Below are positions 30,288 through 37,691 of a stretch of DNA of 64,000 bases, in pieces. How positions within the stretch are numbered: position 1 is the stretch's first letter; each line of letters begins with the position of its first letter. Below the pieces are notes generated by a model that did not search any database, was not told the origin of the DNA, and saw only the letters and a list, made by a program, of their open reading frames with translations. The position numbers and the translations under genes were made by a program. The DNA comes from Escherichia phage vB_EcoM-673R5. The DNA lies in sequence record ON470615.2; one strand, given 5' to 3'.

Positions 30288-31479
30288 GTGACCTGGGACG
30301 ATCACAAGAAGAATTTTGCTCGCCTGGCGCGAGATGGTGGTTACACCATCGCACAGTATGCCGCCGAGTTTAATCTTAACCCTAATACTGCACGTCGTTA
30401 TCTCCGTGCCTTCAAAGAAGACACCAGGACAGCGGACAGCCGCAAGCCAAATAAACCAGTCAGGAAGCCACTAAAAAGCATGATCATTGATCACTCTAAT
30501 GATCAACATGCAGGTGATCACATTGCGGATGAAATAGCGGAAAAACAAAGGGTTAATGCCGTTATCAGTGCCGCAGTCGAGAATGCGAAGCGCCAAAATA
30601 AGCGTATAAATGATCGTTCTGATGATCATGACGTGATCACCCGCGCCCACCGGACCTTACGTGATCGCCTGGAACGCGACACCTGGATGATGATGGTGAA
30701 CGCTTTGAATTCGAAGCTGGCGATTACCTGATAGATAACGTTGAAGCGCGGAAGGCCGCTCGCGCTATGTTGCGTCGGTCCGGGGCCGATGTTCTGGAAA
30801 CCACTCTTCTGGAAAAGTCTCTTTCTCATCTCCTTATGCTGGAGAACGCCAGGATACGTGTATTCGTCTGGTGCAGGAAATGCGCGATCAGCAAAAAGAC
30901 GATGATGAAGGGACTCCGCCTGAATATCGTATCGCGAGCATGCTAAACAGCTGTTCCGCGCAGATAAGCAGCCTGATCAACACCATTTACAGCATCCGGA
31001 ATAACTATCGAAAAGAAAGCCGGGAGGCGGAAAAGCACGCTTTATCTATGGGGCAAGCTGGCATTGTTAAGCTGGCATACGAACGAAAGCGTGAAAATAA
31101 CTGGTCAGTGCTGGAAGCAGCTGAATTCATCGAGGCGCATGGCGGAAAAGTGCCGCCCCTGATGCTGGAGCAAATCAAAGCCGATCTGCGTGCTCCTAAG
31201 ACCAATACCGATGATGAGGAAAGGCAAACAGCCGTCGGTGGCCCTTCTCTTGAAGATCTGGACAAAGTTGCGCGAGAACGGGCCGCCAACCGCCGCGCCG
31301 ATGCCGCATTGTGGATTGAGCAGCGTAGGGAAGAAATCGCCGATATCGTTGATACAGGCGGTTATGGAGATGTTGATACTGAAGGTGTATCAAACGACCC
31401 ATGGCTGGAACAAGACCTGGACGAAGACGAGGAGGAAGACGAAGAAGTTACCCGCAAGCTATACGGGGATGATGATTAA
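30288..31479 (+). CDS. pacA: terminase small/pac-recognition subunit; frameshift near 30730-30870
   Basis: GTG start after AAGGAAG; contains the pac site. Two fragments sum to about 397 codons. Confidence 0.8.
30481..30638 (+). other. pac packaging site: 4 + 3 TGATCA/G hexamers with GATC Dam sites
   Basis: TGATCA at 30481, 30488, 30500, 30515; TGATCG/TGATCA at 30610, 30622, 30633. Confidence 0.85.
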
Positions 31480-32963
31480 TGGCCAGAAGTTGCGTAACGG
31501 ATCCACGTTGGCGCGAGCTGGTGGCGCTATATCGTTATGACTGGATTGCTGCCGCTGATGTTTTGTTCGGCAAAACACCTACCTGGCAGCAGGATCTGAT
31601 TATTGAGTCTGTGCAGGAACAGGGTAGCAAGACATCTGTTTCGTCTGGTCACGGTACCGGGAAATCAGACATGACTTCTATCATGATCATGTTGTTCATA
31701 ATCATGTATCCCGGTGCCCGCGCCATTATCGTTGCGAACAAAATTCAGCAGGTAATGACCGGTATATTCAAGTACATCAAGATAAACTGGGCTACTGCCA
31801 CCAGCCGTTTTCCATGGCTTGCTGATTATTTTGTTCTGACAGAAACCGCTTTCTATGAGGTTACTGGTAAAGGTGTATGGACTGTAGTACCGAAGGGCTT
31901 TCGTCTGGGAAGTGAAGAAGCTCTCGCCGGTGAACACGCAGATCATCTTCTGTATATTATCGATGAAGCCTCCGGTGTCAGTGATAGAGCTTTCGGTATC
32001 ATCACCGGTGCTCTTACCGGACAGGATAACCGCATCTTATTGCTGTCACAGCCTACACGCCCAAGCGGCTATTTCTACGATACACACCATAAACTGGCCA
32101 AGCGTCCTGGTAACCCTGATGGCGTTTATACGGCGATCACGCTTAACAGTGAGGAATCACCGTTGGTAACGCCAGCATTTATCAAAATGAAGCTGGCGGA
32201 GTACGGCGGGCGTGATAACCCTATGTACATGATTAAGGTACGCGGCCTATTCCCTAAATCACAGGATGGCTTCCTTCTTGGACGTGATGAGGTTGAACGT
32301 GCAACGCGGCGGAAAGTCAAGATTGCCAAAGGATGGGGCTGGCTTGCATGTGTGGACGTTGCTGGTGGTACGGGACGGGATAAGTCCGTTATCAATATCA
32401 TGATGGTGTCCGGCCAGCGAAATAAACGCCGTGTAATCAACTATCGAATGCTGGAATACACAGACGTTACAGAAACGCAGCTTGCCGCCAAAATTTTCGC
32501 AGAATGTAATCCTGAGCGATTCCCAAATATCACCATAGCGATAGACGGCGATGGCCTGGGTAAAGCAACGGCGGATCTGATGTACGAGTATTATGGTATT
32601 ACCGTACAGCGTATACGCTGGGGTAAAAAGATGCATAGCCGTGAAGATAAGAGCCTGTACTTTGATAAACGTGCTTATGCCAACGTTCAAGCCGCAGAGG
32701 CCGTAAAATCTGGTCGTATGAGACTGGATAAGGGTAATGAAACTATTGAGGAAGCGTCGAAAATCCCTGTAGGGATTAACTCCGCAGGTCAATGGAAGGT
32801 GATGAGTAAGGAGGATATGAAGAAAAAACTCAACCTGCACTCACCAGACCATTGGGATACATATTGTTTCGCTATGCTGGCGGATTATGTTCCCCAGGAT
32901 GAAGTGCTTAGCGTCGAAGACGAAGCGCAGGTTGATGAAGCTCTGGCATGGCTTAATGAATGA
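31479..32963 (+). CDS. pacB: terminase large subunit
   Basis: 494 aa intact; ATG overlaps the pacA stop; ATPase-like GHGTGKS and [10 protein letters not shown]. Confidence 0.85.
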
Positions 32964-32965
32964 AT

Positions 32966-32983
32966 ATTTGCTCTAATAAATTG
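32966..32983 (+). promoter_or_regulatory. C1 operator (TTTGCTCTAATAAATTG) just after pacB
   Basis: 15/17 consensus match. Confidence 0.55.
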
Positions 32984-33112
32984 TGTTTTTTAACTACCGA
33001 TGTTACATTGAGCCTGACCTCTTGCGCCTTGAGGCATTTTCGGTTTATGCTTATCAGGCACCTCATTAAAACGGGTGCCGGGATTGGCCTCCGCTTAAGT
33101 CTAAGGCGATAC

Positions 33113-33136
33113 AGACGCCGCTCGCGTCTTTTTTGT
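33113..33136 (+). terminator. intrinsic terminator; possible 3' end of a c4-like antisense RNA
   Basis: agacgc-cgctc-gcgtct then TTTTTT. Confidence 0.45.
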
Positions 33137-33299
33137 ATCGGCGTACACGCACACCTCTACAATGGTGGGCTGTATGGGGCTACCTTCGGGTAGGCTGGTT
33201 ACCTTGGACGCCAGTAAGGCCAACTCCGTACAGTCCACCGCCAGCAAGATTGGTCTCTTCTGCGGTGGTTACATACCAACGTCTAAGGAGGCTGCCAAT

Positions 33300-33521
33300 A
33301 TGGCTACTATCCCTACCCCAACTCATCCTGAATTTATCTGGCGCTTTTACTCCTGCCAAAAACGTCACTATCACTTCGTTATTGCACCGACAGAAGATGA
33401 GGCCCGCTCTCAGCTTCCTGACGCCCCATGTATTTTCTCTGCCCGTTTTTCCACTGATTCACGCAATTCTCTCAGTTACTGGTGCCTCCCTGTTAACGCT
33501 TCTGCTCAGGAGGGACTATGA
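33300..33521 (+). CDS. icd: Icd-like small protein, 73 aa
   Basis: AAGGAGG 9 nt before ATG; FIWRF...VIAPTEDEAR pattern; stop overlaps the ant start. Recall-based assignment. Confidence 0.45.
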   Translation: MATIPTPTHPEFIWRFYSCQKRHYHFVIAPTEDEARSQLPDAPCIFSARFSTDSRNSLSYWCLPVNASAQEGL

Positions 33522-34635
33522 GAACGTCATTAGTCACCCGTGAAGAGATGATCGAGGCAATTGAACAGCACACTGCCTGTATCAGTACCAGGGATATACC
33601 AAGCGTTATTGCCAACTACTTCATGATCACCAAACAACTTTACCGGAGAAAGGACAAGAACGCGGTTCACCGTATCCTGTTGTCTGATATCCGCGAATAC
33701 CTGCTCGAACAGGGTCATCTGAATTACGCAACCGCCGCAGCCGAAGCACGCAAGGAGGCACACAGAATGAAAGCAACTAACGTTAAATCAGAAAAAATTC
33801 ATGCACCTTCAGTTCAAGAATCGGAGCTGGTGGTTGTTCAGAATCAGTCTGATGAAATTCCCGTTCTGGAATGGCAGGGAGTGCGTGTAGTGACAACCGA
33901 GACTCTTGCTAGAGGGTATGGGACAGAAACAATCCGTATTCGCCAAAATCATCATGAGAACAAAGTACGCTTTGTTGAAGGGAAGCACTTTTTCAAAGTT
34001 GAAGGAGAATCATTGCGCGAGTTGAAGCACAGAGTAGCTTTAAACTACTCTGTAAAAATTGCTCGCAATGTTCGCTCACTCACCCTCTGGACAGAACGCG
34101 GCGCAGCCGCCACGCTAAAATGCTCGAAACCGATCAGGCATGGGCATTCTTTGAAAAACTGGAAGACAGCTACTTCCGACAAAAAGAACAGCAACCGATC
34201 GCAATCCCCCAGACGCTTCCTGAAGCCCTACGCCTGGCTGCCGAACTGGCTGAACAAAAGCAACTTCTGGAACAGAAAGCCCACCAGCTAAATCAGCAGC
34301 TGGTGGCCGCCGCTCCTAAAGTCGATTTTGCCGACCGGGTATCAGTAGCTAAAGGGATCCTGATTGGGAATTTTGCAAAGGTTGTTGGACTTAAACAAAA
34401 CGCGCTGTTTGTCTGGTTACGGGAGAACGGCATCCTGATAGCGTCCGGTGGACGTAAAAATGTGCCGTTCCAGCAGTACATCAACGCGGGGTATTTCACG
34501 GTGAAAGAAGTGGTGCTGGATGATGAAGATGGCTACCAGATACGGTTGACGCCTCAATTAACGGGTAAAGGCCAGCAGTGGTTGACGCGTAAACTGCTCG
34601 ATGCTGGCTTGTTAAAACCGGTGGCGGCTGAATAA
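33518..34635 (+). CDS. ant: antirepressor (Ant-like, KilAC-type C-terminal domain); frameshift near 34120-34290
   Basis: N-terminal WQGVRVVTTETLARGYG...KVRFVEGKHFFKVEGESLREL; C-terminal GILIGNFAKVVGLKQNALFVWLRENGIL...FQQYINAGYFTVKEV. Confidence 0.6.
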
Positions 34636-34650
34636 TGGAAGAATGCCCGG

Positions 34651-34675
34651 TTGATGCCGGGCATAATTTATTGCG
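34651..34675. terminator. bidirectional hairpin between ant and c1
   Basis: atgcccgg-ttgat-gccgggcat. Confidence 0.45.
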
Positions 34676-34693
34676 CGCTTTCGGGGTTGTCGT

Positions 34694-35517
34694 TTACTGG
34701 CTGCCCCTTCTTGGTTTTACGGCTGCGCGTAACTGATGCGGCTGACTTAACCTTTTTCTCTTCGCGAGTGATGGCAATTTGTTTTTTACATTTTCAATAT
34801 CTGCCAGGCGATATATTTTTGCTTGCGGCCAGCGGTCGCAGATGATCGGTTCTATGGAGTCATAAAGGCTAAATTTTGCTTTTTCGAATTCACCGTTGAT
34901 GATAATTCCATCACGAGAGAGTTTCATCGCAGATAAACACGCCACACAGTGGCACATGGTAACTAACTGATTTACCATCATTGTAGTTAGGGCTACTGGA
35001 AATGTAGTGGACGCGCAGCATTGTTTCGCTAAAGCCGTGTACGCGCATACGGAATTTTTCATCCTCCGGGTACTGCTTCATTAGCTCTTTTGTTGCTTCC
35101 AGGTTCTCTATGTATTTCGCACTGTGCTCATTGATCCCCGCGCTTTTTGGATGCGAATGTCCTTATCAATCAGATGAATAATGCGGCCAGCGGTCATGTT
35201 GACGCTGTTCACAGCTTCTGTCTGATAAGTTGTAACCTTACGCACACCGCGAAGGATGTTAGGCACTGGATATAAAATAGTCTTTGGGATATTGAGGTCT
35301 GGGTACTGTTCCAGTTCCCGCGCCATTAAAGTCCATTTATCAATTTCAGCCTGAATGCTGTCAGTTTCTTTGAACGGTAGAACGACAACCGGGCGTACAG
35401 GACGACCGTCGCTGGCTGTATCAACGTGTTGGGCGCGTGCAACAGCTTTTTTAGAAAGAGATCCCTGAAGCTGACGAACTCCTGGTACAGTTGTTCGCCG
35501 TAGACATAATTTATCAT
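34694..35517 (-). CDS. c1: C1 immunity repressor; at least two frameshifts
   Basis: Starts MINYVYGEQLYQEFVSFRDLFLKK; later fragments MARELEQYPDLNIPKTILYPVPNILRGVRKVTTYQTEAVNSV and DGIIINGEFEKAKFSLYDSIEPIICDRWPQAKIYRLADIENV. Confidence 0.8.
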
Positions 35518-35610
35518 TGATCCTCCTCCAGAATTGACATGGTCAATAACGCCCGGCTGAGAAAACCGGTCATTACTGACCTATATTATAGAGGATCAAA
35601 CAAAAATAAT

Positions 35611-36659: not shown

Positions 36660-37691
36660 ATGTCCAATTTACTGACCGTACACCAAAATTTGCCTGCATT
36701 ACCGGTCGATGCAACGAGTGATGAGGTTCGCAAGAACCTGATGGACATGTTCAGGGATCGCCAGGCGTTTTCTGAGCATACCTGGAAAATGCTTCTGTCC
36801 GTTTGCCGGTCGTGGGCGGCATGGTGCAAGTTGAATAACCGGAAATGGTTTCCCGCAGAACCTGAAGATGTTCGCGATTATCTTCTATATCTTCAGGCGC
36901 GCGGTCTGGCAGTAAAAACTATCCAGCAACATTTGGGCCAGCTAAACATGCTTCATCGTCGGTCCGGGCTGCCACGACCAAGTGACAGTAATGCTGTTTC
37001 ACTGGTCATGCGACGGATCCGAAAAGAAAACGTTGATGCCGGTGAACGTGCAAAACAGGCACTGGCGTTCGAACGCACTGATTTCGACCAGGTTCGTTCA
37101 CTCATGGAAAATAGCGATCGCTGCCAGGATATACGTAATCTGGCATTTCTGGGGATTGCTTATAACACCCTATTACGTATAGCCGAAATTGCCAGGATCA
37201 GGGTTAAAGATATCTCACGTACTGACGGTGGGAGAATGTTAATCCATATTGGCAGAACGAAAACGCTGGTTAGCACCGCAGGTGTAGAGAAGGCACTTAG
37301 CCTGGGGGTAACTAAACTGGTCGAGCGATGGATTTCTGTCTCTGGTGTGGCTGATGATCCGAATAACTACTTGTTTTGCCGTGTCAGAAAAAATGGTGTT
37401 GCCGCGCCATCTGCCACCAGCCAGCTATCAACTCGCGCCCTGGAAGGGATTTTTGAAGCAACTCATCGATTGATTTACGGCGCTAAGGATGACTCTGGTC
37501 AGAGATACCTGGCCTGGTCTGGACACAGTGCCCGTGTCGGAGCCGCGCGAGATATGGCCCGCGCCGGAGTTTCAATACCGGAGATCATGCAAGCTGGTGG
37601 CTGGACCAACGTAAATATTGTCATGAACTATATCCGTAACCTGGATAGTGAAACGGGGGCAATGGTGCGCCTGCTGGAAGATGGCGATTAG
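36660..37691 (+). CDS. cre: Cre tyrosine recombinase
   Basis: 343 aa intact, MSNLLTVHQNLPALPVDATSDEVRKNLMDMFRDRQAFSEHTWKMLLSVCRSWAAWCKLNNRKWFPAEPEDVRDYLLYLQARGLAVKTIQQHLGQLNMLHRRSGLPRPSDSNAV...MVRLLEDGD. Confidence 0.97.
   Translation: MSNLLTVHQNLPALPVDATSDEVRKNLMDMFRDRQAFSEHTWKMLLSVCRSWAAWCKLNNRKWFPAEPEDVRDYLLYLQARGLAVKTIQQHLGQLNMLHRRSGLPRPSDSNAVSLVMRRIRKENVDAGERAKQALAFERTDFDQVRSLMENSDRCQDIRNLAFLGIAYNTLLRIAEIARIRVKDISRTDGGRMLIHIGRTKTLVSTAGVEKALSLGVTKLVERWISVSGVADDPNNYLFCRVRKNGVAAPSATSQLSTRALEGIFEATHRLIYGAKDDSGQRYLAWSGHSARVGAARDMARAGVSIPEIMQAGGWTNVNIVMNYIRNLDSETGAMVRLLEDGD

Follow-up and report, generated by a model that had tools for sequence, protein, structure and literature searches.

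An icd–ant antirepressor module probably under c4-type RNA control between pacB and c1 of Escherichia phage vB_EcoM-673R5

The window analysed here is a stretch of 64,000 nucleotides (nt) from Escherichia phage vB_EcoM-673R5 (record ON470615.2), which is a P1-like phage-plasmid as judged from the open reading frames (ORFs) around pacB–c1. The two genes are separated by 24 bp in phage P1, whereas in the window they lie ~1.7 kb apart (32964–34667). The interval harbours a C1 operator-like site, an IsrK-family leader RNA ending in an intrinsic terminator, a c4 antisense RNA and the genes icd and ant, and very probably constitutes a complete immI-type immunity module, namely a second, relocated c4–icd–ant1/ant2 operon of P1 inserted between pacB and c1. 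The module is of a known kind (P1 immI and IsrK–C4 antirepressor control), and its site has already been noted in the literature. A preliminary description of the stretch had recognized an icd–ant antirepressor module directly beside immC and had proposed a c4-type antisense RNA upstream of icd. The module and its position, with c1 convergent from 34668, are borne out by our analysis. The genes are very probably governed by a c4-type RNA, but this RNA occupies 33158–33245, whereas the segment to which the role had been assigned (33040–33136) is a leader carrying the sites a1 and b1.

Elements of the pacB–c1 interval

The elements of the module, in their order along the window, are as follows.

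32967–32983, plus strand: C1-repressor operator-like site TTTGCTCTAATAAATTG, the counterpart by position of P1 Op51/Oc4
33022–33051, plus strand: candidate promoter TTGCGC-N18-TATGCT of the leader/c4/icd/ant transcript; predicted start ~33058
33058–33135, plus strand: IsrK-family leader RNA with a1, b1 and intrinsic terminator (Rfam isrK, RF01394)
33084–33090, plus strand: a1, TTGGCCT, able to pair with a' of c4; largely within the hairpin 2 loop of the leader, its final T in the 3' arm
33099–33106, plus strand: b1, GTCTAAGG, in the single-stranded leader linker; complementary to b' of c4
33113–33135, plus strand: intrinsic terminator AGACGC-CGCTC-GCGTCT plus T-run (terminator scan)
33164–33242, plus strand: c4 antisense RNA, with ends set by homology to the annotated 77-nt c4 of P1
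33202–33209, plus strand: b', CCUUGGAC, in the loop of c4 hairpin 2
33217–33223, plus strand: a', AGGCCAA, in the unpaired junction of c4
33250–33256, plus strand: a2, TTGGTCT, pairing with a' through one G–U
33281–33288, plus strand: b2, GTCTAAGG, overlapping the icd Shine–Dalgarno sequence AAGGAGG (33285–33291)
33300–33521, plus strand: icd, 73 amino acids, preceded by the same AAGGAGG (33285–33291)
33518–34635, plus strand: ant1, 372 amino acids when intact; frame broken at ~34107 in the window
33767, plus strand: nested in-frame start of ant2, Met-84 of ant1, with AAGGAGG at 33752–33758

The c4 RNA is identified by the sole match of the Rfam C4 model (RF01695) in the window, which spans 33158–33245 of the plus strand, covers the full model (1–87) and scores 75.9 bits against a cut-off of 45. 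It begins downstream of the hairpin at 33113–33135, ~100 bases beyond the place given in the preliminary description. The RNA folds into a long closing stem around two hairpins (minimum free energy –41.6 kcal/mol, z –4.2; none of 200 shuffled sequences was equally stable) and leaves a' and b' unpaired, at the same positions as in the c4 of P1. Its 3' end reads ...CCACC-GCCA. The GCCA that follows the closing stem (33240–33243) resembles that of a tRNA, which would suit a substrate of RNase P.

Specific complementarity links c4 to sites on both of its sides. The icd Shine–Dalgarno sequence begins with the four bases that end b2, an arrangement that matches the annotated b2 of P1. The 64-kb window holds exactly two copies of GTCTAAGG, which start at 33099 and 33281. 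Both copies had been seen in the preliminary description (as gtctaagg), but they are not an antisense sequence and its target; because they run in the same sense, they cannot pair with each other. They are b1 and b2, two same-sense targets of the c4 loop CCUUGGAC, and a1/b1 as a whole are copies of a2/b2 instead of being antisense to them. The icd–ant module is very probably under c4-type RNA control.

The leader upstream of c4 is built of two hairpins, a single-stranded linker and the intrinsic terminator, and hairpin 1 shows two compensatory pairs. Positions 33058–33134 score 49.5 bits (E 9.8e-10) against the Rfam isrK model (RF01394; cut-off 50), and the same leader scores 60.8 bits in NZ_CP027133, the closest complete plasmid in our search of PLSDB (99.7% identical over the query), where it has one extra C at 33091 and two extra T in the T-run. 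By comparison, the Rfam c4-a1b1 model (RF03163) gives no match to the window leader at E ≤ 1, but does match the Salmonella prophage Gifsy-1 and the canonical immI of NZ_CP027133. The terminator, previously described at 33113–33136, was recovered by our terminator scan as a hairpin and T-run at 33113–33135. Its stem is invariant among 25 relatives, and its T-run counts 6 in the window versus 7–9 in most relatives. For c4, icd and ant to be made, this terminator must be read through in part. The leader precedes a C4-like RNA and an antirepressor gene in the same order in Gifsy-1 and in Stx2 phage F039.

Upstream of the leader, the operator-like site TTTGCTCTAATAAATTG differs from the operator sequence ATTGCTCTAATAAATTT by two mismatches, both at end positions, and faces the same way as its counterpart in P1. 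C1 operator-like 17-mers with at most three mismatches occur 16 times in the window, against 0.35 expected, and range from 2193 to 53511 (for example 5712, 21318, 36075 and 53495), as expected for a P1-type genome. The candidate promoter occupies a place equivalent to that of TTGACT-N18-TATATT in Stx2 phage F039 and of TTGACA-N17-TATATT in Gifsy-1 isrK. It is also the positional match of P51b in P1, the –35 element beginning 39 nt past the operator end in both. A promoter at 33022–33051 is proposed by analogy of position only.

On the protein side, the 336 nt 3' of pacB (32964–33299) hold no credible gene according to sequence reading and the ORF list, in agreement with the noncoding stretch reported earlier, and the 73-codon ORF with AAGGAGG that was reported to follow is likewise present in the sequence and the ORF list. 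Its product, which is as long as P1 Icd and shares 74% identity with it, matches NCBIfam phage_ICD_like (E 2.6e-13); a Pfam search with the correct-frame Icd returned no match to an Icd model. The icd stop overlaps the ant1 start in the tetranucleotide ATGA (33518–33521). The domains of Ant were read on the intact protein of NZ_CP027133, which is ~99.5% identical to the two segments of the split protein of the window. Residues 260–361 match Pfam ANT/KilAC (PF03374) with 107.9 bits (cut-off 25.3; E 4e-31), and residues 116–202 match Pfam ORF6N with 70.1 bits. Relative to P1 Ant1, the protein is a mosaic of an N-terminus ~60% identical, an unrelated centre (ORF6N) and a KilAC C-terminus ~90% identical. 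The overlapping ant gene with a KilAC C-terminus, as claimed in the preliminary description, is thus confirmed in its overlap and its domain, but its frame is interrupted at ~34107.

Covariation of c4 with its targets across relatives

Relatives of the module were drawn from IMG/VR (re-screened with nhmmer and tblastn), from phages RCS47 and JL22, and from two lambdoid (Stx) phages, in which the leader and c4 are ~79% identical to those of the window. The 72 leaders collected comprise 32 distinct sequences. Formal pair counts were made on alignment A3, which holds 25 distinct sequences including the two Stx phages, with the following outcome.

Helix a':a2: 7 pairs, 5 changed on both sides, 100% of cells paired
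Helix b':b2: 8 pairs, 4 changed on both sides, 100% of cells paired
Helix a1:a': 6 pairs, 4 changed on both sides, 99.3% of cells paired
Helix b1:b': 8 pairs, 4 changed on both sides, 100% of cells paired
c4 stems: 27 pairs, 11 changed on both sides, 100% of cells paired

When the partners are slid by 1–3 columns, pairing falls to 33–47%. Five a/b combinations are present among the modules between pacB and c1, with TTGGCCT, TTGGAAC or TTGAGAC as a and GTCTAAGG, GTCAAAGG or GCAAAAGG as b, and Stx2 phage F039 brings the further pair TTAGGAC/AATCRAGG. The sites a1, a' and a2 change jointly, and likewise b1, b' and b2, in all cases except one locus (L087). Pairing of a'/b' with both a2/b2 and a1/b1 is shown by this covariation in the aligned sequences. 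By comparison, unconstrained RNAduplex predictions of c4 with its target or with the leader reached z values of only –1.5 and –0.7, respectively, long GC-rich RNAs yielding spurious duplexes; since these predictions did not discriminate, covariation was relied on instead.

The exceptional locus L087 (2197–2491) combines an a1 of TTGGAAC with a'/a2 of the GAGAC type, lies at the canonical site and has kilA downstream. With an a1 that is mismatched to its own c4, the locus resembles a recombinant.

Related systems, proposed mechanism and competing readings

In P1, the annotation of AF234172 comprises Op51, P51a, P51b, a1, b1, c4, a2, b2, icd, ant1 and ant2, and c4, a ~77-nt RNA that RNase P releases from a longer transcript, acts in trans as a repressor of icd/ant (AF234172; PMC8546580). 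Our comparison reveals that the window shares with the immI of P1 and P7 the order and spacing of the elements from the C1 operator through the nested ant2 start. The c4 fold, the 73-residue length of Icd and the ATGA overlap of icd and ant1 are also common to the window and P1. The spacings are as follows.

Operator start to a1: 117 nt in the window, 115 nt in P1
Operator start to c4: 197 nt in the window, 203 nt in P1
Operator end to –35 of the P51b equivalent: 39 nt in the window, 39 nt in P1
a1 to b1: 15 nt in the window, 14 nt in P1
a2 to b2: 31 nt in the window, 29 nt in P1
ant2 start: codon 84 of ant1 in both

The position of the module is distinct. The immI of P1, whose location had been raised as a point to be checked in the preliminary description, lies between sim and kilA/repL at 48.1–49.7 kb of AF234172, ~45 kb off, and not between pacB and c1. 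The leader of the window resembles Rfam isrK (at a score just under the cut-off) instead of the c4-a1b1 model, unlike those of P1 and P7, and P1 Ant is devoid of the ORF6N domain present in the centre of the window Ant. The recognition sequences a/b are TTGGCCT/GTCTAAGG in the window, TTGACAG/GTTAGTG in P1 and TTAGCAG/GATTGTG in P7. Because a'/b' are unlike their counterparts in P1, in P7 and in the canonical immI of NZ_CP027133, the module should act independently, with an immunity specificity of its own.

The closest parallels to the leader-and-c4 arrangement come from the IsrK/STnc1160 (orf45)/AnrP system of Gifsy-1 and the isrK–C4 regions of lambdoid Stx-converting phages, which likewise contain a ~77-nt terminated a1/b1 leader, a C4 RNA, a ribosome-binding site (RBS) covered by b2, and an antirepressor. 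In the Stx phages both arms of the c4 closing stem are near-identical to those of the window. These systems differ from the window in that icd and the ant1/ant2 pair are missing, an antirepressor of the Rha/AnrP type comes directly next, and there is no C1 operator; the Gifsy-1 recognition sequences, TTGGCGT/TCACCG, are also unlike those of the window. Rfam sets isrK and C4 RNA adjacent to each other in Gifsy-1, upstream of the antirepressor gene, with a1 at U26–U32 and a' at A158–A164 (numbered from the isrK start). The Gifsy-1 pairs G28–C162 and G31–C159, which were verified by compensatory mutation by Hershko-Shalev et al. (PMC4825925), map exactly onto the a1:a' helix of its Rfam C4 homologue. 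The short terminated IsrK, which binds Hfq, acts there in trans on the read-through transcript and switches on antirepressor translation, raising it ~140-fold (PMC4825925). The AUG of the Gifsy-1 'orf45' opens the closing stem of the Rfam C4 RNA (L121, 34131–34316, 69 bits). STnc1160, a stable processed RNA, appears to be the c4 homologue. The terms 'bacteriophage P1', 'phage P1', 'RNase P' and 'Rfam' do not occur in the main text of PMC4825925.

Among P1-like elements, RCS47, JL22 and pTZ20_1P have the same insertion site, a near-invariant operator/promoter region, and icd and ant with 88–99% protein identity. RCS47 and JL22 differ from the window in the a/b recognition sequences, in the c4 closing stem and in ~20 extra bases between the terminator and c4. 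The near-invariant operator/promoter region, as against c4 stems that are Stx-like in the window and of another type in RCS47 and JL22, indicates that the leader is a mosaic.

Taken together with the P1 and Gifsy-1 precedents, these elements suggest the following mechanism. Transcription would start at ~33058, downstream of the C1 operator, and the majority of transcripts would end at 33113–33135, producing, by homology, an IsrK-family leader RNA of ~77 nt that displays a1 and b1. Read-through transcripts would hold c4, which would be excised as a ~79-nt RNA, presumably by RNase P as in P1. The b' and a' sequences of c4 would then bind their targets b2 and a2 upstream of icd and, if the P1 effect applies, mask the icd RBS. 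Without translation of icd, the overlapping and coupled ant1/ant2 would stay unexpressed, and the C1 repressor would therefore remain active. The a1/b1 sites of the leader would compete for c4 by titration and thereby set a threshold for antirepressor synthesis. Such a competitor role is plausible in the window by analogy, because IsrK acts in trans on the read-through transcript in Gifsy-1.

Several observations weigh against this reading. The promoter, the processing, the repression and the decoy role of a1/b1 are all derived from homology. The proposed –35 element (TTGCGC) is weak, and a consensus promoter scan, at its own threshold, returned no promoter upstream of the leader. The isrK score of the window falls 0.5 bit under the Rfam cut-off, and a2 and both b sites of the window type each pair with c4 through one G–U, slightly weaker than in the other types. 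In its central third (ORF6N), Ant has no relation to P1 Ant, and C1 is its putative target only. Finally, ant is frameshifted and c1 is broken, and this copy may therefore be non-functional if the differences are real.

In the model of the preliminary description, the terminator-ended RNA of 33040–33136 was itself the antisense, and its gcctcc paired with ggaggc at the icd RBS. This complementarity of 6 nt is present in the window, at slightly different coordinates (gcctcc at 33087–33092 instead of 33085–33090; ggaggc at 33287–33292; aaggaggc at 33285–33292 instead of 33282–33289), and the RNA is probably real and terminator-ended. However, the pairing is broken in 20 of the 25 relatives despite an invariant RBS, with 53% of cells paired and no covariation. 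The sequence gcctcc is an ordinary hexamer found at chance frequency (24 copies in the window versus 25 expected), and RNAduplex pairing of 33040–33136 with 33270–33300 is no better than that of shuffled sequence (–18.4 kcal/mol versus –18.6 ± 2.9 for 1000 shuffles). The genuine C4 RNA, moreover, sits between the proposed antisense and the icd RBS, and the model is hardly credible. A more serious contender is offered by satellite phage P4. The P4 CI RNA belongs to the same wider family as c4, but works through premature transcription termination and controls replication genes instead of an antirepressor. Like c4, it is a processed antisense RNA with complementary sites (seqA/seqC) on both sides of itself (PMC4825925). 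In a corresponding scheme, c4 would mainly control transcription; its pairing with a1/b1 in the nascent leader would set the read-through at 33113–33135, and a1/b1 would be an autoregulatory sensor, not a decoy. The end of b1 is only 7 nt from the terminator stem, and a1/b1 covary with c4 as tightly as a2/b2 do. The same idea has been raised for STnc1160 by analogy with the P4 CI RNA, and IsrK supplied in trans lifted the Gifsy-1 read-through transcript 8-fold (PMC4825925). By comparison, the main effect of IsrK in Gifsy-1 was on translation (140-fold versus 8-fold for transcription), co-expression of STnc1160 gave no relief of the IsrK effect (PMC4825925), and the overlap of b2 with the RBS speaks for control of translation. 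One role does not preclude the other. Control of termination by c4 in the manner of P4 is a partly compatible alternative, and we regard it as possible but rather doubtful as the main function.

The condition of this particular copy suggests yet another reading, in which the module is a decaying remnant. A 4-kb comparison of the window with NZ_CP027133 yields 1 substitution and 9 indels (8 deleted bases at 7 sites and 1 inserted base), with indel positions at 33091, 33129, 34107, 34782, 34916, 35144, 35447 and 35593. Because of the indels, leader hairpin 2 lacks one base in its 3' arm and the terminator has a shorter T-run. One C, missing relative to all close relatives, splits the ant frame at ~34107 into ORFs 33518–34291 and 34120–34635. 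One-base indels at 34782, 34916, 35144 and 35447 break c1 at four places into three ORFs, and a fifth indel, at 35593, lies just upstream of the c1 start. If the ant frameshift and the broken c1 were real, the RNA genes may persist while the antirepressor output would be lost. Three collections contain no exact match to the window and no record with its indels. However, indels make up 9 of the 10 differences from the closest plasmid, and 6 of the 8 deleted bases fall in C or T runs, which is the usual signature of long-read error. A plasmid prophage with c1 broken by four indels would, moreover, not stay repressed. All 280 module-bearing genomes are at most 99.7% identical, and annotation shows intact genes in the relatives examined; ant is intact in those whose annotation or translation was checked, and PGAP lists an antirepressor product in the top matches. 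Sequencing error is the likeliest cause of the indels, and the remnant reading is unlikely. We retain the immI-type module, with c4 acting on icd and ant, as the preferred reading.

Two modules in one element and their distribution

The closest complete plasmid, NZ_CP027133, has a module of the window type in addition to a canonical immI. One icd–ant set lies by kilA–repL, with C4 and c4-a1b1 matches, and the other lies between pacB and c1, with C4 and isrK matches. Within the window, similarity to kilA is confined to the KilAC domain shared by ant, and the canonical immI would lie outside the window according to the NZ_CP027133 map. Cognate sets of c4 and targets show no mismatches at 15 positions. 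By comparison, the window-type c4 has 9 mismatches at 15 positions with the canonical targets of NZ_CP027133, and the canonical c4 has 5 with the targets of the window. Given these non-matching recognition sequences, the two switches are expected to be independent.

The canonical immI of NZ_CP027133 (L005, 25780–26160) has an a of the P7 type (TTAGCAG) and a b, ACGAATG, unlike those of P1 (GTTAGTG) and P7 (GATTGTG). As far as these recognition loops tell, the canonical immI diversifies too. In two IMG/VR contigs (L025 and L027), an IsrK leader and c4 of the second-module type occupy the canonical immI position, with kilA directly downstream, which indicates that the module kinds exchange parts or positions. 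A further contig (L030, shared with L098) contains the window-type leader and c4 twice, at 2256–2530 and 3822–4096, 1,566 nt apart; this may reflect either tandem duplication of the module or faulty assembly.

The module is widespread. In PLSDB, 268 plasmids cover at least 80% of it, and among 5426 complete E. coli genomes the module together with c1 is covered to at least 80% in 280 (~5%), a number close to the 308 genomes that have an uninterrupted P1-type junction. The IMG/VR contigs obtained in the icd search are P1-like, with pacB upstream, wherever the flank is available. In IMG/VR the recognition core of the window c4 was found in 29 contigs and gave no sign of P1-unlike contexts, their names having been matched by eye to the icd-search set and the loci from the recognition-core search not having been re-screened. 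With the core present in apparently P1-like contigs only, there is no sign of a specificity shared with lambdoid phages.

The insertion between pacB and c1 of RCS47, JL22 and pTZ20_1P has been described as 'two short hypothetical orfs and an antirepressor gene', without RNAs (PMC6906374), and our literature search found no paper that describes the RNA parts of this insertion. In NZ_CP027133, RefSeq names the Icd-like and KilAC proteins but has no noncoding RNA feature for c4 or for the IsrK-like leader. An incomplete pseudo coding sequence annotated as 'ash family protein' (NZ_CP027133.1, 27889–28002; L120) lies over the c4 (Rfam C4, 27919–28006), and is probably a match of a protein model to an RNA gene.

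P1-like phage-plasmids of E. coli often carry resistance genes, and their coexistence, superinfection and induction depend on their immunity circuits. For annotation, an insertion listed as ant plus hypothetical ORFs can now be read as a full c4/IsrK–icd–ant switch with its own specificities. The principle of c4 control itself is unchanged. Our analysis adds the RNA annotation, the covarying specificities, evidence that one element carries two independent modules, and an assignment of the Gifsy-1 experiments to a1:a', which gives the long 'putative' a1/b1 sites of P1 a testable role. As a tentative extension, it may be common for P1-like phage-plasmids to have two RNA-gated antirepressor switches that work independently, the second of which, between pacB and c1, would be built on an IsrK/C4 leader of the lambdoid type (Stx, Gifsy). 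Its recognition loops would be combinatorial (three a by three b, five combinations seen), the second module would define extra heteroimmunity groups among co-circulating P1-like plasmids, and an Ant with ORF6N might respond to, or act on, partners besides C1.

The neighbouring features of the module are the following.

30288–32963: pacA/pacB, with the end of pacB at 32963 (ORF list)
34643–34664, no strand assigned: hairpin ATGCCCGG-TTGA-TGCCGGGCAT (terminator scan)
34668–35517, minus strand: c1 repressor gene, convergent with ant (ORF list)
Beyond c1: coi, then Cre at 36660–37691 (ORF list)

An ORF of 77 codons (32960–33193) begins in the stop region of pacB and spans the C1 operator, the promoter, the leader RNA and the terminator. 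Its counterparts count 68–78 codons in relatives, and that of JL22 is annotated as hypothetical gp120. The ORF is rich in Cys, Arg and Leu, has no family match and is probably spurious as a gene. Three tRNA genes are present elsewhere in the window, at 6392, 6470 and 7976. At the other end of the module, the hairpin at 34643–34664 lies in the 32 nt that separate the stop of ant (34635) from that of c1 (34668), and is likely a two-way terminator between these convergent genes.

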